Both the position numbers and the translations under genes were made by a program. Positions 1,542-64,000 of a stretch of DNA of 64,000 nucleotides are shown piece after piece. The stretch is from contig OX597824.1 in the NCBI GenBank assembly GCA_951406725.2, forward strand, positions 51,460,001 through 51,524,000. Direction: 5' to 3'. Source of the stretch: Octopus vulgaris. Its lineage: Eukaryota. The first letter of the stretch is position 1, and each line of letters begins with the position of its first letter. Under the pieces are notes generated by a model. It worked only from the letters and a program-made list of their open reading frames with translations. It was not told where the DNA came from and ran no database searches.

Positions 1542-4500
1542 TATTTTTTTATTAACCACAGCACAGGACAAGAACAAAAAATGTGTGTATGTGTGTGTAT
1601 GTGTGTGAGTGTGTGTAGTTGTGAGGGTTTTGTATATAAACAAGACTATTAAGATTTAAAAAGAGAATGAGATCAACAATGTGCTATCCTCTATCGTGAG
1701 GAGACGTTCAAAGGCTGCTCATAGAAAAACCCCATAAAAATCATGGATGCCCTGACTTTTGGGGCAGATACCTTTTTTACTTTCCTTTTTTTTCCAACTA
1801 TAGGCGTATGCTCAGGGCAGGCTCGTTCACACGTACCATTCTCGTTGCTTTCAGCACCTTTCAGTAAACTGGCTAGAAGACAACACTTCCCTCTCTGCCC
1901 TTATTTTCCTTTTCAAGTAAAACTTGAAATTCATCAGGGATTGGCCAGAGAGAAAAGTGTTTATCTTCAGCTTCTTCAATTTTGTCCACCACACAACTTC
2001 TTTCGCCATGGCCACCAGGCATATAAAAACAGCCTTTCCTTTCCGGGATGATCTTCACAATGGATTCAGTTGATAGCTGGATCCGTCCTACACGCGACAG
2101 CAGGAGTTCGACATAAACTCACAGATCAGCAATGCTCGGGCACTGCATGAGTGCATGCAGGACCGTCTTGTCCTGTGCGCATCTCGAATATGCTCGGCCG
2201 ACGGTACTTCCGTGCCTGTAAAGTTTATCTCGAATAGGCAAAGCTCCCCGGTAGCAGCGCCAGGCCGGAGATTTTTGGAAACTATTCATTGGTCCCAGTC
2301 CAAAAGTTCTCCGGAAAAGAGCGACTAGCTGATCTTCGACGCCCAAGCTCTCCCCAAGAACGTCGTCGCATTTTTCTTCCACTAATCTTCTATAAAAAGC
2401 TAAAGTGAACGTTCCACCTGTCGCACTGGCTGATTAGCTGAGGGCTGTGAGCGCTTGAAGATATTCCACTTTTCCGCTTTCCAAATACTCCTCCTTGGTC
2501 TCTGTTTTACCCAGGACTGCAGCTCCGTTAAGGAAACTAGTTGGAGAAATACGTGTTTAGCAAACGGAGACCACACTTGCTCACCGTCAAGGAAGCACTG
2601 GAAATGTCGTAGCCTTAGCGTATGCCTGCACATCATCAATCACAGCATGCCCAGGCCACCACGCAGCGGGTGTTGACAGCAGATAAACCGCCTGACCACC
2701 GGAATACGTCCCTTCCCACAAGAAGCGGAAGAGTATACGCTCCAGCTTAATCAGACACTGACCAGGGCAAGGTACGACAGTCAGGCGATAGTAGGTGACG
2801 GATGCGATATACGCGTTTCTGCCCGACCTTTCAGGGATAGTTTTCTCTCGGCCCATTTCTGGGTGAGAGTAGTCACTCTGCTCCTTACCTCGTCCCTGTT
2901 TTGTCCATCTGGGGTTCCGGACCGAATCAGACTTGGAACAATTTAACCGGTCCAACCGTCCAGCGCCCAATGACGCAATTGGACGTCATGGGCTTGCTTC
3001 TCCGGACGCCAAGCCCACTGATTTTTTCCTGGCTAAGTGTTGCTCCTGAAACCGCCTCGTAGTCCCTGAGAGCGGTGCTGATCATTTCTGTGTATTTATG
3101 ATCCAACACCACTACAGTGACGTCGTCAGCTTATGCCGACACGCATCTCCCACGTCCTAGGTCATGCGGGATGTCTCTCAACGCTTCCGGTTTGTGTAGT
3201 AGTGGCTCGAGAATCAGTATATACAAGAGAGACGACAGGGGACAACCTTGCCGGACCGAGCACTTGATGCTGAATGATTCTGAGAGGCGACCGCTCTGTC
3301 TGACCACTGAACAGATGTCGCTGTGCATTGCAGCGATCCAGCCCCTGTAATCGCATGAGGTGGAGGTTGTCGTGGGAGGATCTTTTCAGAATGGCACATA
3401 TCCCCGACGACAAGCACCAACCTCGTAGCTAATAACTTGGCCAAAATTTTGAACTCTACATTCAGCATAGATATGAGCCTAAAGTTATGGGTCTTTTCTC
3501 AGCAACGCCACCACTCCACGGCTCACAAAACTAGGAATTCTCCCATTCTGTTGCCAGTTGCAGTAAACGTTTGTTAAGAGGTAACCTAACAAGTCTGGCA
3601 TGTAAACGTAAAGCTCGTAGGGAAGACCAGCCAAACCAGACGATTTACTCCTCATGCGGCGAGCCATATGCCGACATAACTCTCCCTAGGAAATCTCCGA
3701 TTTCCTGCGGGAATTGGGGTTTTTAAGTGTGTGTATGTTTTGTGTTAAGTGTATGTATGTTTTGTGTTCAGTTCGTAATGTTATTGTCTTTAGTTTGTGC
3801 TTCTTGTTGTTGTTGTTGTGGTGGTGGTGGTGGTTGCGTGTGTAGAATGGCTTGTGTTTTAGGTGTTAGAGGTGGTGGTGTCGATGTAGTGTTTGTTTTG
3901 GGCGTATTTGTTTTTGTTTTGATTTTTTTCCTCTCTACTTTTTGTGTGGATGAGGATTGTTGTTGTTTGTCCCCATGTTTATTTTTCCTTCTGTCTCTTT
4001 TACGTTTTCTTTTGTTTCTTTTTAACTGCCAATCCTCATCACGGTCCGTCTCTTCAGCTGTGATGTCCTCCCGCTTTGCCATAGGGAATGGAACATCTTC
4101 GGGCGCTGAGAAGTGTTTGGGTGAACTCGGTGTCAGTAAGGTTGTTGATGTTGGTGTTGGTGTTGCTACGGCTGAATCTACTGAAGGTGCTGCTGCTGTT
4201 GTAGTTGGAGTTCTGGCGGCCGTTATTGGTGTAGGGAGGAGAGGTGCCTGTCTCTCTTTTTCGTTTAGTTTAGAGTAGTCGGCTTTTAAATGCTTAGGGG
4301 AAAAGCAAAGGTGGCACTTTTCTTTTCTTCCATCTACCCTGACTGGAATTATACTGCCTACAGGAAGAAGGATCTGGTCTGGGATGGGATCTACATTCTT
4401 TTGTGTTGTTTGTATAAGGAGTTCTACGGTCATCCCAGACCAGTTCTTTTTGGTCTGATAGGCTTCAAGGATTTTCGAGTTTCCCTCGATGTCTATTATC

Positions 4501-5370
4501 ACTGCCGCAATTAGCCAAGGAATGGCTATTTCTGGCAACACCTGCTGAATTATAATTTTGGTCAGTCTCTGACCGCTGTAGTAAGAAACTAGCAACAGCT
4601 CTTCGCTTTTGAGGAGATTCAGAGCGTGCTGTTTGGCTTCTTCCTCGTAGTGGAATCTGTATATACTCCTTTAGATTTCAGACGGAACCTAAAGCTTCTT
4701 GTATTTGAGCCTCTGTGGCTTTTTCCACCCTCCTTGACTTTAACCCAATTGTACGGTACGTCACTGTGCGGCGTATCGTAGCCTGGATTATCTCAGGTGG
4801 TGTTTTCAACTTTACAACTATTTCGTCTCTCTCGATTAGCTGTCTAGCATCTTTAAGTTCCTCTTCGGAGAATCGTATTCTCTGAAGAGATGACTTGGTT
4901 ACTCCAGCGAAAGAAAGCTTTGAGAGACTGTTCTAAGCCGATGTACCGGTTTGTGTCTCAGCTCCTTCATAGTCTTTGTCATTGTTGTAGTTGCTTTTGT
5001 TACTGCCGTTGTTGGTTTTGTTGTTGCTGTTGACACCTTTGTTATTGTTTATGGTTGTGGTTGTTGATGGTGCTGCTGCTGCTGTTATTGTTGTTGTTGT
5101 TGCTGTTGCTGATGCTGTTGTTATTTATAGTTAACTCATCTGTTGCCTTTCATTGCTTACATTTTCGAAATTAATGCTTTCACTTCGAATAATGCTTTCA
5201 TTTCGAATAATCTTGTCAAAAACAGGGCCTTTCTTTTTCAAACGATCTTCTGAGTGATCCTTCTTGAAAAAATTGACTCAGTTGGCATTTTTGTCTTTTT
5301 TCGACAAAAATACAACTATCGTCTGTTTTTTGTTTGTTTTTTTTTTTCAGACCGAAGTCGCTTTGCACTC
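1541..5370 (-). mobile_element. Degenerate Tx1/L1-like non-LTR retrotransposon with the endonuclease region deleted
   Basis: ORF1 (3768-4595) has the zinc knuckle CHLCFSPKHLKAD and resembles ORF1 at 61244. ORF2 fragments include LLNVEFKILAK, SVRQGCPLS, VSA-ADD and C-terminal TVLHALMQCP. The 3' end reads AATAAAAAAA at ~1545. Confidence 0.9.
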
Positions 5371-10839: not shown

Positions 10840-11390
10840 TGGAAAATGGGTTTCAGTTTCAAAACATTGATATCTAGGCCACAAAATCAAAGTTTGAACA
10901 GAATAATAGTCGTTTAACTTTGATTTTTAGATAAAAGCAAATAGGAAATAAAGCTTATCAACCAAAGACGAAAAAAGAAAAATTGGTTATACAGTGTAAT
11001 GATTCCTGCACAGTCTTTCTTTTTATTTATTTATTTTTGTCGGTGTAGAACATGAAGAATGTTTTGTACGACTTGTGAACACCGAGATGAACAAAATATG
11101 CGGTCTAGTGGGCTTTGCATAGACATGCATTTTCCATTGACCAGCGAAGATTCATCCCAGGGCAATGAAGGATTGATTCAGTATTTGAAGCCGATGATGC
11201 AGAAACGCGGGCATTCATCATTCATAGCCCAATTATGTTTTCTTACACATTTTCTACGAGGAGGATTTTCTTATGAGACTATTTCCGAGATGAAAGATCT
11301 TCCTGCGTCTAGTGTAAACGAATTTGTTAAGTGTGATTATACACACATACATTTCATTAAACGCTGCTTCGTTCGCCTCCAGTATATATG

Positions 11391-11435
<45 letters not shown>

Positions 11436-11599
11436 ATGCATATATATATGTATACATGTGTGTATGCATGTATACATGCATGCATACATACATACATGCA
11501 TACATACATACATGTATACATACATACATACATGTATACATACATACATACATACATACATACATACATACATACTTACATGTATACATACATACATAT

Positions 11600-11634
<35 letters not shown>

Positions 11635-11737
11635 CATACTTATATACATACATATATATTGGAGGCGAACGAAGCAGCGTTGAATGAAATGTATGTGTTT
11701 ATAATCATACTTAACAAATTTGTTTACACTAGACGCA
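10840..11737 (+). mobile_element. Penelope-like 3' remnant with an inverted terminal copy around a microsatellite
   Basis: 11304-11392 is inverted at ~11648-11737. A degenerate hammerhead-like motif lies at 11186-11217. Upstream FQFQNIDI.ATKS resembles a GIY-YIG C-terminus. Confidence 0.5.
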
Positions 11738-12043
11738 TACATGTATACATACATATATGCATACATATATGTATGTATACATGTATGCATGCATATATGT
11801 ATACATGCAAATATGTATGCATGCATGAACGTATGCATACTTTCATGAATGCATGTATATATGCATTCGTGAATGTATGTACGCTATGGGATCGAACCCT
11901 GAACCGCGTAGTCCCGAAGCCAGTTACTTAACCGCACAACCATACTTGTGCCAATAGTCTATTAGGGAAAAGCCCAACAACCATTCATAGGGAGAATATT
12001 ATTTTAGTGAATTTTATTAGATGTTGCGCTGCTGGTGCTCATG

Positions 12044-15006: not shown

Positions 15007-16296
15007 CGAGGGGCGTTCAATAAGTAATGCCCCTGACCCACTTCCCATAGCAGTAGAGCAACGAAACTTGGCACAGTTATTAGTCTGTTTCTACATAGGA
15101 ACCACCCAGAGATACGCATTTCTCCCATCGTTTGATGCGGCTCTGGAGACCGTTTTTGTAGAAGAACCCAGCTTGGTCCTCCAACCTCAACGTGACTTCA
15201 GAAATCAAGACTGCATCATCTGAGAAACGCTTTCCTTTTAAAAACAACTTCATGATTGGGAAGAGGTGAAAATCAGAGGGTGCAAGGTCAGGAAAGTAGG
15301 GGGATGGGGAGGAGTTCATAGCCATACGCCTGTGCTTCTGATCTGGCGACAAGCGAGTTGTGGACCGGAGCGTTGTCCTGCAGGAGGAGGATGCCTTTAC
15401 TGATCTTGCCCCGCCTCTTGATTTTGATAACTTCTCTTAATTTCCTCAAAAGTGAAGCATAATAGGCTCCTGCAATTGTGGTACCCTTTGCCAGGAAATC
15501 TGTCATCACTACTCCGTCCTGGTCCCAGAAGACTGTGAGCATGACCTTGCCAGCGGAGGGCTGCGCCCTAGCCTTCTTTGAAGGGGGTGAGTCACGGTGC
15601 TTCCACTGCATTGACTGGGATTTGGTCTCTGGATCATCATGATGGACCCAGGTTTCATCCTGTGTAATCAGTCTTTTGAAAAATTTTGACTCATCTTCTT
15701 GGCACATGTCCAAATTCACCCTCGAGCACTCGATGCGTTCTTGCTTCTGGAAAGGCGTGAGCAACCTGGGAATCCATCTGGCAGACACCTTTTGCATATG
15801 CAAATGGTCATGAATGATAGTTTCCACAGACCCGGTACTAATCTTGACCTCATGGGCTATTTGGCGAATAATTATGCGTCGATCTTCCAAAATGGCAGCC
15901 TCAACTTGATGGACAGATGCCTCATCAATGGCAGAAGGGGGCGACCAGATCTGGGAGCTGTTTTCACAGAGTTCCGACCATGTTTGAATTCACGATGCCA
16001 GCGTTTTACAAGGTCATATGATGGGGCATCATCACCATAAGTTACTTTCATTTCATCAAAAGTTTCCCGTGGTGTGCGTCCTTTCAAATACAAGAACTGG
16101 ATCACTGCTCGACACTCAACAGGCTCCATTTCACACTTGACTCGGTTCAAACACCTGTAAATCAGAAACCACAATTAATTCAGAGCTGTAATTTACCACT
16201 TACTCTATAGAGATATAAATGATTGCACATGCAAAATTTCAGCTAGATCCAACAACTGCAAGTGGGTCAGAGGCATTACTTATTGAACGTCCCTCG
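15007..16296 (-). mobile_element. Full-length mariner transposon, 1290 bp
   Basis: ~37-bp TIRs CGAGGG(G/A)CGTTCAATAAGTAATGCC(C/T)CTGACCCACTT, with TA target duplication at 15005-15006 and 16297-16298. Confidence 0.97.
15080..16129 (-). pseudogene. Mariner D,D34D-type transposase with two frameshifts
   Basis: MEPVECRAVIQFL HTH region, WIPRLLT, TQDETW, QDNAPVH and PDLAPSDFHLF are spread over three ORFs. Confidence 0.93.
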
Positions 16297-26268: not shown

Positions 26269-28001
26269 CATCATCATCATCATCATCATCATCGTTTAAC
26301 GTCCGTTTTCCGCGCTAGCACGGGTTGGACGGTTCGACCGGGGTCTGGGAAGCCAGGGGCCGCTCCAGGCTCCAGTCTGATCTGGCAGAGTTTCTACGGC
26401 TGGATGCCCTTCCTAACGCCAACCACTCCGTGAGTGGAGTGGGTGCTTTTACGTGCCACCTGCACAGGGGCCGGGGGGGGGTCCGGCATCGGTCACGATC
26501 GGTTTGAGCTTTTAACGTGCCAGCGGCACGGGGGCAACGGGATCCGGGGTACTTTGGGGATCCGGGGTACTTTGAATGGGTAGGGGGTATGTGGAATTGC
26601 TGCAGAAAGCAGCCTGGGTCTTTGCAGTCACAGCATATCTCCAGAGATCTCGGTCCTTCGCTCTGAGGTCATGCTTGACTACTTCATCCCATGTCTTCCT
26701 GGGTCTACCTCTCCCCCTGATACCTTCAACTGTTTGGGAGTGGCACTTCTTCACACATCTCTCTTCATCCATCCGCAGCACATGACCATACCATCGCAAG
26801 CGTCGCTCTTGCACACCACATCTGATGCTTCTTATATCCAGCATTTCTCTTAGGATGCTTACACTCTGTCTTGCGTGCACACTGACACTACACATCCAGC
26901 GGATCATGCTAGCTTCATTTCTTTCAAGTCTACGCATGTCCTCTGCAGTCACAGCCCATGTTTCATTACCGTGAAGCATGGCAGTTCACACACATGCATC
27001 ATACAGTCTACCTTTCGCTCTGAGGGAGAGACCTTTTGTTGCCAGTAGGGGTAGGAGCTTTCTGAACTTTGCCCAGGCTATTCGTATTCTAGTGGTGATA
27101 CTCTCTGTGCATCCACCTCCGCTACTAACTTGGTCACCCAGGTAGCGGAAACTATCAACTACTTCTAGTTTCTCTCCCTGGAGTGTGATGGAATCTGTTT
27201 TCTGAGTGTCTGTTGTGTCTATTGTCCCTGTGCATCTGCCGCACAAAAGCTATCTTATCTGTTAATTTCCCTTTAATGTTGCTGCACCTCTTATGTGTCC
27301 ATAGCTTACATTGGGTGCATCTTATGGAGTTTCTACCTGTACCTTTCTTACAGATTGAGCAGGGCCACCTACCCGAGGGGGTGTGTGCTGAGTACCTCTT
27401 GCTGCTTACTAATACTTTGGTCTTTGCTACATTTATTCTAAGGCCCTTTGATTCTAACCCTTGCTTCCACACCCGAAATTTCTTTTCTAGTTCCGGTAGT
27501 GATTCTGCTATGAGAGCTAGGTCATCGGCATAGAGGAGCTCCCAGGGGCATCCCGTTTTGAATTCCTCTGTTATTGCCTGAAGGACTATGATGAATAAAA
27601 GGGGACTGAGGGCTGAGCCCTGGTGCACACCTACTTCTACCCGGAATTCTTCACTATATTCGTTGCCAATCCTAACCTTGCTGACAGCCTCTCTGTATAG
27701 AGCCTGTACAGCCCTTATTAGCCATTCGTCAATCTCCAGTTTCCGCATCGACCACCAGATAAGGGAACGGGGAACCCTGTCAAAGGCTTTCTCCAAGTCT
27801 ACAAAAGCTATGTAGAGGGGTTTATCTTTAGCTAGGTACTTCTCCTGCAGTTGTCGGACCAGGAATATAGCGTCAGTGGTGCTTCTACCTGGTACAAAAC
27901 CGAACTGCATTTCATCTAAACAAATTCTCTCCCTAATGAGATGGGTTATGACCTTCTCTGAGACCTTCATCACCTGGTCCAACAGTTTGATACCTCTGTA
28001 G

Positions 28002-28003
<2 letters not shown>
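26269..28003 (-). mobile_element. RTE-clade LINE, 5'-truncated, RT largely intact
   Basis: YRGIKLL, QFGFVPGRSTTDAIF, FVDLEKAFDRVP, GVHQGSALSP, LLYADDL, FRYLG, RLRWYGHVLRM and RGRGRPRKTW; (GAT)n tail. Confidence 0.95.
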
Positions 28004-28051
<48 letters not shown>

Positions 28052-28449
28052 GTAAATAAATAAAAAACGAAGAATAAGCACAAGAAAAAAACAACAATGC
28101 GAGGATGTGGTACATGTAAAGTATTAGCAGACACTCAGGGAAGGAAAGAAAGGTGGTATATAGTATTTTATAAGTTTAAAGCTTATAAAATATTACTATT
28201 ATTCTTACAGAATTTTAAAAATTGACACTGCTTACCAAAAATCTTCACTGAAAAGCATATACATAAAGTGAACACTAATGGCATCTAAAATTTATGACAG
28301 CTGTGTTCAGTAGAATTTTATTAATGCATTCATTGAAGATTACATCATAATATAGAATTCACTATCATGAGGTAAAATTTTAAACAAGTGAGATTTTTTC
28401 CTTCAAAACAAACAAGGTCCAAATCAAATGTTAAATATAAATATATATA

Positions 28450-32937: not shown

Positions 32938-33942
32938 CTAAAATCAAAAAGAAATAAATACAATTAAAACTAAGAATGTAAAAAAAATAAAATAAAAGGA
33001 AGATGAAACAAAAAGAAACTGTATTTGTTGAATATTTGATCCCTATAAAGATCATATAGTCGACCAAAACAATAAAGCTCTGAATGGCTGCATTTCCTTT
33101 CAGCTCTTCTTAGTTTTGAGCTCAAATCCCATTAGAGTCCTCTGTATTTTTTATTCTTTTGAGGTCAATAAAAGAAGAAGTAATAAACTGAGAAGATTCA
33201 AGTGAATATATGTGTTTTTATTCCCTTTACAAGAAATTTATATTTTGATAGCTGTGACAGCATTTTGATATTAGCTCTGACTTTTTGTATAAAGTATCAG
33301 TTAGTTTGGTTACAATATGGTATTTCTCTGGACAGAAGGTATTTTGAATAAATTAGAAAATCATGGTGTATGACATTCACTACCTCAACACCAACAACAA
33401 CAAAGAGCTAACAAGCATGTGTGATGACATTCCACCAGAGTGCAAGGATGCAGAAATACCTTTAGTTGGTGTCAAGGTATGCAGTAAAACCAATGGGAGG
33501 GAGGGACCCCTAGCTGGAGTCACATCATCCTTCTAAGAGAGAGATTCTGTGGTGTAAAACCTGCAGCTTAATATGATTACTTGTCATCTTGCTCTGACCT
33601 GTCGCTAGGTACTAATCATAGAGACTCAGAAAGTGGTAGTTGTTTTGTTTAGTTAAGTGACTCAAACATCAATAGATGTCTGGTATTTGTAGTTGTGATG
33701 ATGGAGGAGGGAGAAAAATCACAACCAGTGTGAAGTGAAATTAAAATACAAAGAGAACAAAACTAAAAAGTTTACAGTAGTCATTGGTTTCTCCATTCCA
33801 GAACCTCTACAGGCTAAAGGGAGCAGCTAACTCTCTTCAAAAATCACCTGCTGCTGCTTTGAAAATGAAGGATACATCACAGAAAATGGTTATGGCTTAA
33901 ACAACAATAGCAGTAGCAATGTAATCTAATAAAATTATCTAC

Positions 33943-34979
33943 CTGGATGTTTCTTTTAATGAAGTTCTTTTTGGTTTTCTTCTTCATCTGAGTATGTTCT
34001 TCATCCTGACTTGAGGTCGCCTCTTTGATTTTCACCGGACTAGGTGGCATTTCACTGAGTTCTAATTGGAGTGATTCATTACTAAATGACAGTCGTATTT
34101 CACTTGAGACTACTTCATTCAATTCCTGACTTAAGTCTGTCCCACTGAAGCCTACTAGTTCACTGGGTGATTGATTGAGTGATTTATTGTTGTTATATTG
34201 GCTCAAATCTTCACTAATGAGCCCCACTTGATCTGAGTCCATACCACTAAGTGCTTCAGCTGGAGACTCACTACTGATATTTTGGTTTGAGTATGTATTA
34301 CTGAGTCCCACTTGGTCCAACACTGAATCACTGGGCGCTTGATGTGGAGACTCAATACTGATACTTTGGCTTGAGCCTTTATTACTGAGCACCACTTGGT
34401 CTGAGACCACATCAATGGGGACCTTATTTGGAAATTCAATATTGATATTTTGGCTTGAGCCTGTACCACTGAGCACCACTTGGCCACAAGGTAACTGATT
34501 GAGAGACTTGTTATTAATATTTTGGCTTGAGCTTGTGTTGCTGAGCACCACTTGGTCTAAGACCACATCACTGGGTACCTGAGTTAGAGGCTCACAGCTG
34601 ATATTTTGGTTTGAGCCTACAACACTGAGTCTCATTTGGTCAGGATTCACATTAGTCGGTGTTGAGCTCAGGGAATTATTACTGGTAACCTGAACTAACT
34701 TCAAATCATAGGATGACACTGGGTCTGATATCATATCACTAACTTCTTGATTCAAAGACTTTTTGTCAGTGGTTTCATCTTTGAGGCCTTCATTTGAAAT
34801 TTCATTAACAATGTCTTTGACTGAATTTGTATCCTTAACAATATCAGCAGAGGATAGTTCACTTTGGAGAATTTTGTCTTTGACACTCTCACTATCGTCC
34901 TTGAAGTCTTCAAGAAAATAGTGTTCATCATCAAATGTGAGATCCCGAGTTTTCTTTTCAGTATATTCATTCACCATAG
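33943..34979 (-). CDS. FSIP1: FSIP1-like large exon (1037 bp) containing tandem repeats
   Basis: tgtag|CT ... CAG|gtaga; phase 1 in, 0 out. Open throughout and ends KKNFIKRNIQ. Confidence 0.85.
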
Positions 34980-35227
34980 CTACAATAATTACAACATACA
35001 ATAGGTGGTTAATATATGAACACTATATTTATGTTGATGATGATCATGATGAAAATGGTTATGAATAAGGGAGACCAAGTCATGCAGACAACAGTAATTT
35101 TGATGCTAATAAAAGACTGGGTAAAGACTATGATGATGTATATGATCATAACAATAATGTTGAAAATGATGGTGATTATGATGACTGATAATGATGATGA
35201 GGATGACAATGACAACAACAACGATGA

Positions 35228-42946: not shown

Positions 42947-44384
42947 CTTGAGTGTAAACATTGCAAGTCAAGTTATTCCATTCAAGAGGTAGAGAAATGA
43001 AAAAGAAAAAGAAATAGCTCCCATGATTGTTGTTATTTAGTTCTGATATTACAATTAAAATGAAACAAAATAGCTATGCTTTGTAGCTGGTGTGATAACA
43101 CAGATTGCTCTAATGAGTCATGGGGATGACAGTTTTTAAACTATCTTATGCATATCTTATGCAAGTATTGTTGTTACATATAAAATGGCAAATAGCAATA
43201 TTAAAACATAGGGTCCTATGGAGGAGGTTTTGTCTAAATTTGGAAGCCCTCAAAAGTTTGTAAAAACACTGAAAGCTGTCCATAAAGACATGAAAGCCAA
43301 AGTAAAATTTGGGGTCACACTCTCTGAACCTTTTCCAGTAGAGAGTAGTGTGAAACAGAGACTTTGATGCCTGTGTTTTTCTTTGCAGTATATTTTGCTG
43401 CCATGTTCTATTATGTTCTCCAAGACAAAAATGAGGGGCATATGCAGAGAGACATGAATATGGGTACAAAGATATGTATACATCCATGTACATACACATT
43501 TGTGTGTTAATGCACATGTATATAGATATACATCATCATCATCATCATCGTTTAACGTCCGCTTTCCATGCTAGCATGGGTTGGACAATTTGACTGAGGA
43601 CTGGCAAACCAGATGGCTGCACCAGGCTCCAATCTGATCTGGCAGAGTTTCTACAGATGGATGCCCTTCCTAACACCAACCACTCCAAGAGTGTAGTGGG
43701 TGCTTTTACGTGCCACCGGCACAAGGGCCAGTCAGGCGGTACTGGCAATGGCCACGCTCAAATGGTGCTTTTTATGTGCCACCTGCACAGTAGCCAGTCC
43801 AGCGGCACTGGCAACATGTAAATATGCATATATATTCACACACCCATGTAAGGTGCATACAGATACATGTATAAATATATGTCAATACACATTTATAGAT
43901 GCACATATGAGTAGAGATATATAAATTAGACACTGGGACATACAATGAACTAGGTTACACTGGATACATATAAGAGTAGAGGGACATAGATAGACTAATA
44001 GACATATGTAAAAAAGTAATCACAACATCAGGGGTCATTTGGCTCAGCCAGAATTAGAGAGGAAAAGTTCAATTTTCTGTAGTGTCTGCGAATAACATTT
44101 TTAGTTGCAGGCATTGGTGTGTGGTAAAAAGTTTGCTTCCCAGCCACATGGTTCCGGATTCAGTCCCTCTGTGTGGTACCTTAGGCAAATGTCTTCTACT
44201 ATAGCCTCAGGCTGACTAACACCTTGTGAGTGGACTTGGTAGATGGAAACTGAAAGAAGTTCATCATGTGTGTGTGTGTGTGTGTGTGTGTGTGATAATG
44301 GAAGCTATTTACTACCTCTAAGTTGTTCCCCTGGCAATGCACACACACACATATATATATATTATACATACATACATACATACA

Positions 44385-44453
<69 letters not shown>

Positions 44454-44954
44454 ATAGTATATATAATATATATATTTTCTACTCTAGGCACAAGGGCCCG
44501 AAATTTGGGGGGAGGAAGCCAGACAATTAAATCGATCCCAAGTACACAATTGGTACTTAATTTATCGACCCTGAAAGAATGAAAGGCAAAGTTGACCTCG
44601 GCAGAATTTGAACTCAGAACGTAGCGGCAGACGAAATACCGCTAAGCATTTCGCCCGGCGTGCTAATGATTATATAATATATATATATATATATATCATC
44701 ATCATCATCATCATCGTTTAGCGTCCGTTTTCCATGCTAGCATGGGTTGGACGGGTCAACTGGGATCTGTGAAGCTGGAAGGCTTCGTCAGGCCCAGTCA
44801 GATCTGGCAGTGTTTCTACGGCTGGATGCCCTTCCTAACGCCAACCACTCCGCGAGTGTAGTGGGTGTTTTTTACGTGCCACCTGCACATATATAAATAT
44901 ATGTATGTAATGTATGTATGTATGTATATAGTATATAATATATATATATATATA

Positions 44955-45584
44955 AAATTAATTGTTATCGCCATATTAATATGGCAATCTTATAGATATA
45001 AGACTAAAAGCTGTCGCTGATTAGCTCCATGAGGCCATCGCCTTAAGATAGCTATATGACACACAAACTGTGTCCATTAAAACCTTCGAACAAGGGAGGT
45101 CAGCCGCTTCACACTGCTAGTCAGACAGCTACAGACGCGTTTCAGGGTATTTGCCCCTTGTCAATGTAGCGTAGTCGACTCAGCAGGTGTCGCCACTGAT
45201 CGTCTCTGTTTGAAGGTTCTATTTACCTATTTTCGGTGGAATACATCCACTTGTTTTCAATAATAGAAATATTAAAATTACTAAGTCTCTCTAAAAGAGA
45301 TTACGACAGCGTTACTGGAAATTAATTGTTATCGCCATATTAATATGGCAATCTTATAGATATAAGACTAAAAGCTGTCGCTGATTAGCTCCATGTTCGA
45401 GGGTTCTAATGGACACAGTTTGTGTGTCAAATAGCTATCTTAAGGCGATGGCCTCATGGAGCTAATCAGCGACAGCTTTTAGTCTTATATCTATAAGATT
45501 GCCATATTAATATGGCGATAACAATTAATTTCCAGTAACGCTGTCGTAATCTCTTTTAGAGAGACTTAGTAATTTTAATATTTC

Positions 45585-45590
<6 letters not shown>
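44955..45590 (-). mobile_element. Retrozyme / non-autonomous Penelope-like element: 364-nt monomer, 77-bp direct repeat and ~195-bp inverted segment
   Basis: 44955-45031 equals 45319-45395. 45396-45590 is the reverse complement of 45260-45318 joined to 44955-45090. (TA)n lies on both flanks and the element contains a hammerhead. Confidence 0.8.
45128..45170 (-). ncRNA. Minimal type I hammerhead ribozyme, U3-A8 variant
   Basis: GCUACA-UUGACAA-GGGG caaaua CCCU-GAAA-C GC G-UC^-UGUAGC: 6-bp stem I (extendable), stem II, palindromic ACGCGU stem III and a GUC cleavage site. Confidence 0.8.
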
Positions 45591-45635
<45 letters not shown>

Positions 45636-55424: not shown

Positions 55425-55760
55425 ATAATATATATATATAAAAAATTAGAAAAAAAACAACCTTTTATCAATTCAAAATGAACAATTAAATTACACCATC
55501 TAGAAAATTACGTATAATAGGAATATTAAAATTAAAATAACAATAAAATATCAATGATTAAGTAAATTGAAAAAAAATAATAAAACCAATTATATACGTT
55601 TTATTATTTTTTTGCAATTTACTTAATCATTGATATTTTATTGTTATTTTAATTTTAATATTTCTATTATATGTAATTTTCTAGATGGTGTAATTTAATT
55701 GTTCATTTTGAATTGATAAAAGGTTGGGTTTTTTTTCTAATTTTTTTATATAATATATAT
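55425..55760. repeat. Near-perfect AT-rich palindrome with ~160-bp arms
   Basis: The arms meet at a ~11-nt spacer (caattatatac) near 55592; nested within a family B SINE. Confidence 0.92.
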
Positions 55761-60881: not shown

Positions 60882-62740
60882 ATGGCTTTGAAACGAGCTG
60901 CTGGCTCTTCCCTCCTTCTTGCAACACCCCCTCCACAAGAACAAAAAAAAATAACGTCACGGGTTACGTACAACCCATTTCAAGCCGTAAAAGGCAACAA
61001 AGATCCTCCTTCCGAACCGGAGAGCACGCGCTCGGTTCAAAAGGAGAATGCATGCCAGGACGTCGCGTTCGACGTCACTCTTGATTTCCCCCCTCTGCCT
61101 TCAACAAGTGATGCTGTACCGAAGGGGAGGTAAAGAAAATTATAACAGACACAAACACAGACAAGAACCAACAAAAAACTGTAAAAGCTTCTAACGATTT
61201 TGCTTCTGCTGCGAAGCAAATTTCGGAAGATGTAGAAATTACAATGGAGGACATAAAAATGGCACAAGATTTGTTGAGAAAGGAGGGGAACAGTGTTTTC
61301 CTCAACACACCTCAACAACTCACACAAGAGACAAACAAAAGAACAATCTTTTATAAAGTCTTCGAAAAGAAAACTAAAAGATTGTTTAACGCCACACCAC
61401 AACAGTTGGAGATGGCTCTGAAGCCCATTTGGGGCCAGAAGAGCTATGTGACAAGAGGGAAGCGATTTGGAACCGTGGAGGTTCGCTTCCCAACAGAGGA
61501 GCTTGCAAGGGCGAACGCCATTTCGCCCTTGCAAAATGAACATTTGTTCCTCGTCCCGACGTACCTCGGGCGTAAGGTACAAAAAATAACTATAAGCACA
61601 ATACCCCCCGAACAGAAAATCTCATGGCTAGTGGCGGCTGTCCTCTATGGCATAGAGGACACTGCCACTATTCTGAATGTTCGGAGGGTACGAGAAAAGA
61701 ACTGGTCAGGCATGGGTATTCAACTGCTGGTACAGATCCAGCAGGAAAACATCAATGCCATACCTGACTTTGTCATCTTGCTGGATGGGACCAGGCTAAA
61801 TGTTATTGTAGAGGGGCGAAAGCCAAAATGTTTCCTCTGCAGTAGCGAAAGCCACCTAAAAAGGGACTGCCCCATTCAAAAAAAGAGAATGGAGGAGTAT
61901 AGCAAGAGGCAGCAGCAACAACAACAACAACAACAACACAAGCAACAACAACAGAAACAACAAAAACAGCAAGAAAAACCAAAGGCTGCCACACCACCAA
62001 CACCATCACCAACACCAGCACCAAGACGAACAACACCACCTCCAACAACAACAACCACCACCAAACCAACACCGACAACCACCACCAAACCAACACCGAC
62101 ACCAGTACCTCGAAGGTCGACAGCAGCGACATCAACAGTAACAGGAGCAGCGGCACCACCGATACCGGTGGAACCAGAAACTTTTCGTCCTGCTACTGAA
62201 GCAGACCCCTCAACCATTCCTTTGCCGGATGAAGAGTCGGATTGTGCGAGCTCTGATTCCAACAAAGGAGAATGGAGTATAGTGCCTCCAAAGAAGAAAA
62301 GGAGGAAGAAACAAAAGATTTACAGGGGAAGCACGAACAAATAGTGCTTCCCAACATCAACAACAACAACAACAACAACACACACTCACAACAACAAACA
62401 ACAACAACACTTTCGACACCACTACTGCCACTGCCACACACACAAACACACACAGACACAATTACATCAATAAACACAAAGAACCAAAAACTAGTGGAGT
62501 ACTTAAAAACAAAACTAGTACAAATATAACCGATTTCATCATACCAACACAAAACACACCACCAGCACACATTCTCACAATAAAAATAAATGCAAAAACA
62601 TATGATGAAATCAAACAAATATTCCCTAACGATGTGGGATCGCTAGGGAAAAGTTTCTCGAAGAAACTTTACAAAAACATTGTGGAAGCACCCGTGCAAA
62701 AGCACAAGGGAGCCACCCCCACCACCAACAACAGTAAGTA
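60882..62740 (+). pseudogene. ORF1 gag-like protein (RRM-like plus CCHC knuckle), frameshifted
   Basis: Main ORF 61244-62344 contains GTVEVRF and CFLCSSESHLKRDC, with a Q/T/P-rich tail. Confidence 0.85.
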
Positions 62741-62782
62741 GAGCCTTTTTTCTCCTTTTTTTTTCGCCCTAACTTTTGAAAC

Positions 62783-64000
62783 ATGGCAAATCTTAGAATC
62801 GGTTGCTTGAATGTGAGAGGCCTCGGGTCACCTTGGAAACAGGGTCACCTGTTAAACGACCTGAGGTTTCATGATGTGGATGTAGCAGCCATCAGTGAAA
62901 CCAGGCTCTCCGACCCGCAGGAACTCGCAGCCCTTTTCGGCGGATACGAGATATTTCTATCTCCGTGTCGGCCGGGAGCGGGCGGTGGTGGTACTGCGGT
63001 GTTGTTTCGGAAGGGCCTGGACCTGAAAATAAGGACAGTCTTCTTGGATCCGGAAGGTAAGTTGGTGGTCCTCGACGTGGACGGTAGTGACGGTGGTGCT
63101 TTCAGACTGCTGGCTGCCTACGCTCCGACAGGAGCAGGGCTGTCGGATTATTTCAAACGTCTGGAAGTTTTCCTGGGAATGTCACGCACTCTAGTACTTG
63201 TTGGGGATTGGAACGCTGTCTTAGACGAACGTTTCGATCGGGTGGGCAGGGGAGCGTCTGATAGGAGAGGGGGAGGGTGCAAGAGCCTCGCCAACCTACT
63301 CGGCCGCTTTCAGCTGTCCGACAGGTTTCGACTAGACAACCCGAATGTGCCAATGTGGACTTGGACAAACCGCATCGGGTCGTCTAGATCGTACTTAGAT
63401 AGAGTGTTTTGTAGGCCAGCGGATAAGGACAGCGTAGGGTGACCACAATTCCACCTAGTCGAATATACGGACCACAAATTAGTGATCTGTACGGTCGACT
63501 TAGATAGGCTACATAGACAGGGACCCGGCTACTGGAAGCTGAACGCGTCGTTAACGGCGTGCAAAGCTTACAGAGACCGGATTAGTTTACTAGTTAAGCG
63601 GGCGCTCACGGGGGCAATCATCAACAACAACTGGTGGTTTGCCCTCAAGAGAGCAATTAGAGTAGAGTCGATTAGGTATAGTAAGACTCTAGCTATTGAA
63701 CGTAGGAAGAGAGAGTGGGATTTAGTTAAGAAACTAGACGAGGCTCTTGACACTGGCATCGCGACCGACGTGTTGGCGGCAAGGTTGGCCCTCGACCAAC
63801 ACTTCGACGCCAAACACGAAGGCTGCGTTGTCAGAGCTAAGGCACGTTCGCTAAGCGGGGAGGGGACTAGAGCCGCTCGATGGGCCCGCGTGGCGGAGGC
63901 GAAGCGAGGCAACAGAGCAACCATTCGGTCTTTGGTGGACCAGAACGGGCGCGAGGTTACCCAACCGAAGCAGATGTGTACGGTGCTTCAGCGGCACTTT
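62783..64000 (+). pseudogene. ORF2 APE endonuclease and linker, with one premature stop at 63440
   Basis: IGCLNVRGL, ISETR, VGDWN, WTW and SYLDR, then YTDH and GPGYWKLN in the same frame after the TGA. Confidence 0.9.

Follow-up and report, generated by a model that had tools for sequence, protein, structure and literature searches.

A 364-nt hammerhead retrozyme family in Octopus vulgaris with the insertion pattern of Penelope-like elements

The stretch of Octopus vulgaris DNA analysed here (64,000 nucleotides of contig OX597824.1, hereafter the window) holds, at 44955-45590, one copy of a non-coding 364-nt hammerhead family that was probably put into (TA)n by a Penelope-like reverse transcriptase (RT)/endonuclease copying a predicted small circular RNA. 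The family comprises thousands of dispersed copies in three subfamilies, together with a distant sister family. On every sequence-level feature tested, and known here from sequence alone, it is a member of the non-LTR retrozymes, a class that is itself already known: its tandem units of 364, 360 and 362 nt fall within the range of 150-450 bp, each unit has a type I hammerhead, no protein is encoded and unit runs directly into unit. With elements mobilised by Penelope-like elements (PLEs) it shares two 3' termini, a tail on one end and an adjacent inverted 5'-truncated copy. It thus appears to insert as a PLE does, yet, being without an ORF, it is no autonomous PLE.

The window copy, its hammerhead and the family

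As the initial annotation had described, the locus consists of a 364-bp non-coding monomer (44955-45318), a repeat of its first 77 bp (45319-45395, 100% identical) and an inverted segment (45396-45590), all lying between a TA-rich tract (44889-44954) and a (TA)16 tract (45588-45619). In reverse complement, the inverted segment corresponds to monomer positions 306-364 joined to 1-136. It extends past the direct repeat by exactly 59 bp, where about 60 had been given, and differs from the first copy at exactly three positions, the number annotated (monomer 102, 126 and 131), a fourth mismatch appearing only when a 5-nt junction overlap is counted. The length and repeats of the annotated layout stand; its starting point does not. 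The RNA sense of the element is the minus strand, 44955 is a 3' terminus and not the start of a monomer, and the real unit junction lies at 45259/45260. Unit positions are numbered below in RNA sense, with position 364 at window position 45260.

The locus is an ordinary case for its family, with two head-to-head arms whose 3' ends point outward into (TA)n. Arm 1 (minus strand, 45395 to 44955, 441 nt) runs through unit 229-364 and then 1-305 to a tail-less terminus (about 304) at 44955, and includes an internal copy of the 59-nt tail, unit 306-364, at 45260-45318 (minus strand). Arm 2 (plus strand, 45394 to 45590, 197 nt) covers unit 168-364, carries its tail at 45532-45590, ends at a tailed terminus at 45590 and has no hammerhead. 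The two 5' ends are joined at 45394-45395 with a 2-nt overlap. The longest stop-free stretch of the unit is 31 aa in sense and 60 aa in antisense, there is no PLE ORF within the window, and Rfam at its gathering threshold gave zero matches anywhere in the 64 kb. Elsewhere the window contains an endonuclease/exonuclease/phosphatase (LINE-like) ORF at 62780-63439 (plus strand), an RVT_1 fragment at 27158-28123 and a mariner-type transposase fragment at 15291-15989 (both minus strand), and four stop-free frames of 291-410 aa with zero Pfam matches (33880-35022 and 3771-4670, minus strand; 61112-62341 and 11056-11928, plus strand).

A relaxed motif scan of the window returned four matches, one of which alone had hammerhead helices, in keeping with the single hammerhead annotated. 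This minimal type I motif (minus strand, 45169-45129) pairs CTACA at 45169-45165 with TGTAG at 45133-45129 as stem I, has the core TTGACAA...GAAA (U3-A8) instead of CTGANGA, a 4-bp stem II and a palindromic stem III (ACGCGT), and is predicted to cut after the C at 45134. The U3-A8 variant and the need for a dimer, imposed by a palindromic helix III, have been described for PLE hammerheads (Cervera and de la Pena 2014, PMC4209133), and two copies of the octopus motif are predicted to co-fold as a dimeric hammerhead. The window copy, with its one hammerhead, could not, to judge from its layout, free a monomer through double self-cleavage.

The hammerhead sits at the tip of a predicted long imperfect rod in which unit positions of about 41-95 pair with 127-179 (45081-45219, minus strand). 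Folded as a circle, the unit falls far below shuffled sequences on both strands (z of -5.7 sense and -8.1 antisense, 60 shuffles); the predicted fold strength is about equal on the two strands, a point against the explanation favoured here. Compensatory changes among the subfamilies in stems I and II and in the palindrome of stem III suggest constraint at the RNA level, the covariation being that of three lineages: stem I has A-U, G-U or G-C pairs, ACGCGT becomes ACATGT, stem II is altered on both sides and N7 is free. In a 10-copy alignment, which represents three lineages only, both sides change in 7 of 81 pairs (0 of 500 shuffles). When the single fold of the window copy is taken as reference, 8 pairs are broken and 5 retained in subfamily B, and 5 are broken and 8 retained in subfamily C, several peripheral pairs being among those lost. 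Variants are rarer in the hammerhead core (4/1,028 versus 728/38,695 elsewhere), a figure we set aside as evidence because one search had selected on that region.

Genome-wide BLAST, as the initial annotation had proposed, revealed a multi-copy family with thousands of dispersed members and tandem arrays of up to 7.5 units. The monomer gave 3,002 candidate places, 40 of them scored. Subfamily B (360-nt unit, 86% identity) has 2,887 candidate places, and for subfamily C (362-nt unit, 87% identity) a 24-nt marker was matched exactly 858 times; a degenerate hammerhead pattern drawn to fit all three subfamilies matched exactly 1,804 times genome-wide (control 0). Subfamily C is young, its copies being 98-100% identical, and its arrays hold at least two consecutive hammerhead units, the mark of an 'active' retrozyme in Li 2026. 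The sister family (2,787 candidates) is 57% identical to the unit, with a score of 146 against a shuffled maximum of 102. Its unit measures 346-358 nt in 4 of 24 loci (about 357 nt; L212-L236, e.g. L225:1380-1737, and L246:1408-1969), a canonical CUGAUGA core (C3-G8) is found in 12 of the 24, those that the pattern matched, and the palindrome is a different one, TCGA. These copies too are tandem and inverted and terminate in (TA)n. One 77%-identical arm, at L085, which had seemed divergent, is explained otherwise: this copy (968-1266) has an internal inversion of its hammerhead-bearing segment. Assembled contigs from four sequencing runs (three of guessed RNA type, one of unknown type), which fall under two organism labels, covered all 28 bins; they carry no information on strand, ends or circles, and we count them neither way on the question of expression. 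Beside the window copy, at 44100-44860, lie other dispersed repeats nested in microsatellites, parts of which turn up again in as many as 34 of the 135 family loci examined; this recurrence suggests shared TA-rich landing sites.

Termini, tail and a candidate partner

Arm ends were compared in 75 loci of subfamilies A and B (90 fetched, 15 duplicates removed), which, taken from the top of the BLAST results, over-represent long copies, and in 29 of 45 fetched loci of subfamily C, after overlaps and one locus with a masked flank were dropped. Two fixed sites, separated by 59 nt, take most of the 3' ends: of the 116 A/B arms, 100 end at 364 (61) or at about 304 (39). The 5' ends are scattered across the unit. 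Head-to-head orientation was found in 35 of the 75 loci and tail-to-tail in none. A microsatellite lies within 20 nt of 92 of 110 outward 3' ends versus 11 of 40 outward 5' ends (p 2e-10). Where a head-to-head A/B locus has two canonical ends, one is tailed and the other tail-less in 26 of 27 cases, with eight further loci having one non-canonical end; subfamily C, with the locally duplicated pair L156 left out, has 20 mixed loci, one with a non-canonical end and seven that are unidirectional. Overall, a tailed end is paired with a tail-less one in 46 of the 47 inverted loci whose ends are both canonical (p 3e-13). The 5' ends do pile up at unit 165-182 (A/B 17 against 4.8 expected, scan-corrected p 0.016; C 11 against 2.8), which is the base of the predicted rod that the RT would reach first. 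Overlaps of 1-7 nt occur at 46 of 58 inversion points, a count for which no null was computed and in which 1-2 nt are expected by chance. Target-site duplications are unreadable at these loci because the targets are microsatellites.

By analogy, the rule of one tail per insertion is the known PLE 'tail'. Craig et al. 2021 (10.1101/2021.04.23.441226) describe partial tandems, a neighbouring copy in inverted orientation and a one-sided tail as features of PLEs. For an anole PLE in vitro, Frangieh et al. 2024 (PMC11167929) showed that the tail is the stretch between two internal RT starts, with nicking and extension of both DNA strands where the target is AT-rich. Together with the copy number, the end pattern thus supports the proposal of the initial annotation that a non-coding hammerhead retrozyme was moved by Penelope-like machinery. 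One of its arguments falls: the inverted arm's crossing of the monomer end-start junction, taken as a sign of a circular template, is the 59-nt PLE tail present on one end in 46 of 47 inverted insertions, and is therefore uninformative on circularity. A circular template is still preferred, on what the multimers and variants of subfamily C suggest.

The genome does hold intact PLEs with RT and GIY-YIG domains. An abundant one (L051-L054) has an intact 781-aa RT+GIY-YIG ORF, an upstream overlapping ORF and a Neptune-type CxxxxCxxC linker. It ends in (TA)n, with a tail of roughly 30 nt in 4 of 15 copies and tail-less ends in the other 11, and has a U3-A8 hammerhead about 60-80 nt upstream of the tail-less end; by analogy it is a candidate helper of the 364-nt family. 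A second PLE family (L055:321-3483) has 766-bp head-to-head arms, 100% identical, one tailed and one tail-less, with a CUGAAGA-type hammerhead. Neither BLAST nor nhmmer found unit sequence shared with an autonomous element among 64 PLE loci, a partial sample in which 150 of 6,136 GIY-YIG candidates were scored, and the partner is accordingly read from the end pattern alone. Attachment of all copies to a coding Penelope ORF, which the initial annotation had named as the contrary case, is not what we found: sampled copies are unlinked to a PLE ORF. Searched with a PLE protein, 135 family loci (a count that includes duplicates) gave no linked ORF and a single neighbour, placed tail-to-tail across TA tracts. 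This subfamily B copy (L049/L060) was rejected as a link to a parent, the two being independent neighbours, and so were sister-family copies near PLEs (L055, L246), from which TA or unrelated DNA separates them. A weak AT-rich likeness in BLAST between the unit and the 3' repeat of another PLE family (L058) was not supported by nhmmer. That family (L192-L211) has a fixed, diverged duplication of roughly 287 bp straight after the stop codon, in which the motif pattern found no hammerhead. A small head-to-head inverted remnant at window 55431-55750 resembles its 3' repeat; a 21-nt exact match to the unit's 3' end inside the remnant (55650-55670) is probably an AT-rich coincidence.

The template and rival explanations

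Subfamily C has the longest arms (2,731, 1,827, 1,406 and 1,295 nt), reaching up to 7.5 units. Its arms cross the predicted cut site 66 times, with one 5' end within 124-130 (0.9 expected) and no indel listed at the site, and 24 of 24 unselected A/B arms pass it as well. A cleaved linear monomer as template should make 5' ends pile up at unit 127. No such enrichment is seen in A/B or C arms, at the cut site (unit 127) or at the 364/1 junction, which led us to reject, as the main template, a linear monomer whose end lies at either the cut site or unit position 1. Crossing the cut site nevertheless requires no circle, since the anole PLE inserts with unprocessed RNA, its dominant substrate in vitro, and equally well with mutant hammerheads; zero RNA reads started or ended at the cut site there (PMC11167929).

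Variants within single insertions are more telling. Among 107 variant-by-locus cases in subfamily C, 30 are in all passes, 73 in one pass and 4 in some (two in L148, where a short arm stands apart; the L156 duplicate pair; and one present in two of three). The share of cases in which a minor variant is held in common is 52% inside an arm, 34% from arm to arm and 4% from locus to locus; the corresponding divergence values are 0.46%, 0.62% (arms of the same locus) and 1.27%. In A/B, rare variants are shared in 32 of 373 within-locus cases, the figure from locus to locus being 0.6%. Homogeneity in young arrays is 99-100%, and inverted arms carry the haplotype of their array. Variants found in all passes or in one, and rarely in some, point to repeated copying of one monomer followed by independent mutation. 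This pattern argues against stepwise expansion at the DNA level; it is also compatible with transcripts of young arrays combined with occasional in-register template jumps.

DNA elements too show inverted arms, TA targets and tandem units, and the hammerhead drew zero Rfam matches, both of which could speak for a DNA-based repeat (a fold-back, a Helitron-like rolling-circle DNA element or a satellite) with a chance hammerhead look-alike. We give this almost no weight, given the polarity of the copies, with fixed 3' and scattered 5' ends, the tail asymmetry, the covariation, tolerant of G-U pairs, seen in each of the three hammerhead helices, and the exchange between C3-G8 and U3-A8. Alternatively, the copies might be 5'-truncated pLTR fragments of an unsampled autonomous PLE, their arrays having grown later by slippage or unequal crossing-over. 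PLE ends have been proposed to amplify locally (10.64898/2026.07.22.740005), and a parent could have been missed with 150 of the 6,136 candidates scored. However, the arms go from 364 to 1 directly into the next unit and not into an ORF, PLE protein matched only the one neighbour across the 135 loci, stepwise growth should give variants shared by blocks of units where only 4 of the 107 cases are partial, and the array haplotype is common to inverted arms; we regard this origin as improbable.

A PLE-driven insertion with a linear template carries more weight, though we still consider it unlikely. Here the RT would copy either uncleaved read-through RNA from an array still young and homogeneous or a short linear molecule along which it skips back in register, with no need for a covalent circle. 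The anole substrate fits this, as does the homogeneity of young arrays, whose transcripts would likewise repeat one haplotype; minimal PLE hammerheads are moreover poor cleavers in vitro (PMC4209133), and 8 of 9 Xenopus dimers failed to cleave (Li et al. 2026, 10.64898/2026.07.22.740005). Such a template cannot lengthen arrays, however, and the many locus-private variants present in every pass would need frequent expansion from monomer to multimer. Neither the cut site nor the 364/1 junction is marked by indels or 5' stops, and the hammerhead has been kept, with covariation, across four lineages. We therefore hold copying of a circle by the PLE machinery to be the probable course, and put it no higher, nor the linear template lower, because uncleaved RNA was the main substrate in Frangieh et al.

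In the circular reading, genomic multimers would be transcribed, their hammerheads would cut as dimers through the palindromic stem III, and the monomers would be ligated into circles. A Neptune-like PLE protein would then nick both (TA)n strands and prime at internal sites of the RNA, using position 364 for one strand and about 304 for its partner. Each cDNA would circuit the template until drop-off, often at the base of the long rod, and the two 5' ends would be joined via short overlaps. The window copy would be a one-hammerhead dead end of this cycle.

Relation to known elements and meaning

Like the animal non-LTR retrozymes described in PMC7229834 and 10.64898/2026.07.22.740005, the octopus family has non-coding tandem units of 150-450 bp, a type I hammerhead, a highly self-paired sequence and a host genome with autonomous PLEs; mussel units measure about 350-390 bp (Cervera and de la Pena 2020, PMC7229834). 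Unlike them, its hammerhead is of the minimal U3-A8 PLE type, and its copies are single insertions scattered over (TA)n sites, showing PLE tails and arms placed head-to-head. Circular RNA has been demonstrated for the animal retrozymes, whereas the octopus family is known from the genome. Points in common with EN+ PLEs of the Neptune/Poseidon type (10.1101/2021.04.23.441226; PMC11167929) are partial tandems, a neighbouring 5'-truncated copy in inverted orientation, a tail confined to one end, two starts of the RT inside the RNA, insertion into microsatellites or AT-rich DNA, and a hammerhead upstream of the 3' end. The octopus family differs from these PLEs in its ORF-less unit, a tail of 59 nt against 30-40, arms that circle the whole unit up to 7.5 times, and the lack of a sequence parent among the sampled PLE loci. 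The minimal PLE hammerheads of PMC4209133 show the same U3-A8 covariation and palindromic helix III needing a dimer, but they are mostly single motifs or lie in pLTRs and have a helix II of 7-8 bp, where the octopus motif has 4 bp and sits at a rod tip in an ORF-less tandem unit.

Mobilisation of animal retrozymes by PLEs has been argued from co-occurrence and pLTR similarity, with circle-templated multimeric cDNA drawn as a hypothesis (PMC7229834; 10.64898/2026.07.22.740005); tails, inverted arms and within-insertion haplotypes are not reported in the accessible parts of these two sources. Literature searches returned no account of the 364-nt family or of cephalopod retrozymes; an entry in a repeat library (Repbase/Dfam) may exist. 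In its main text, an octopus repeat-annotation paper (PMC13282606) uses neither 'ribozyme' nor 'retrozyme', and for the giant squid the available text gives only a count, 235 Rfam hammerheads (PMC6962438).

What the family offers is evidence at the level of single insertions, for PLE mobilisation in the near-perfect one-tail rule and for circle-templated cDNA in the monomer bottleneck. Since one genome contains both a young subfamily and intact TA-targeting PLE ORFs, open PLE questions, namely the origin of tandem and inverted ends and the role of the hammerheads, could be tested with one protein and a 362-nt RNA. Tentatively, and with less confidence than we place in the circular template itself, we suggest that this may be an old lineage of viroid-sized RNA circles of about 360 nt that has outlived any coding parent and exploits a Neptune-like PLE protein in trans as a parasite. 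In that case its young insertions would be a direct record of rolling-circle reverse transcription, a PLE dimer priming two target strands at two fixed sites of the same circle, always one strand per site. If true, a single mechanism, a PLE dimer on a circle, would account at once for the tail of PLEs, for the inverted ends and for what PLE hammerheads do.
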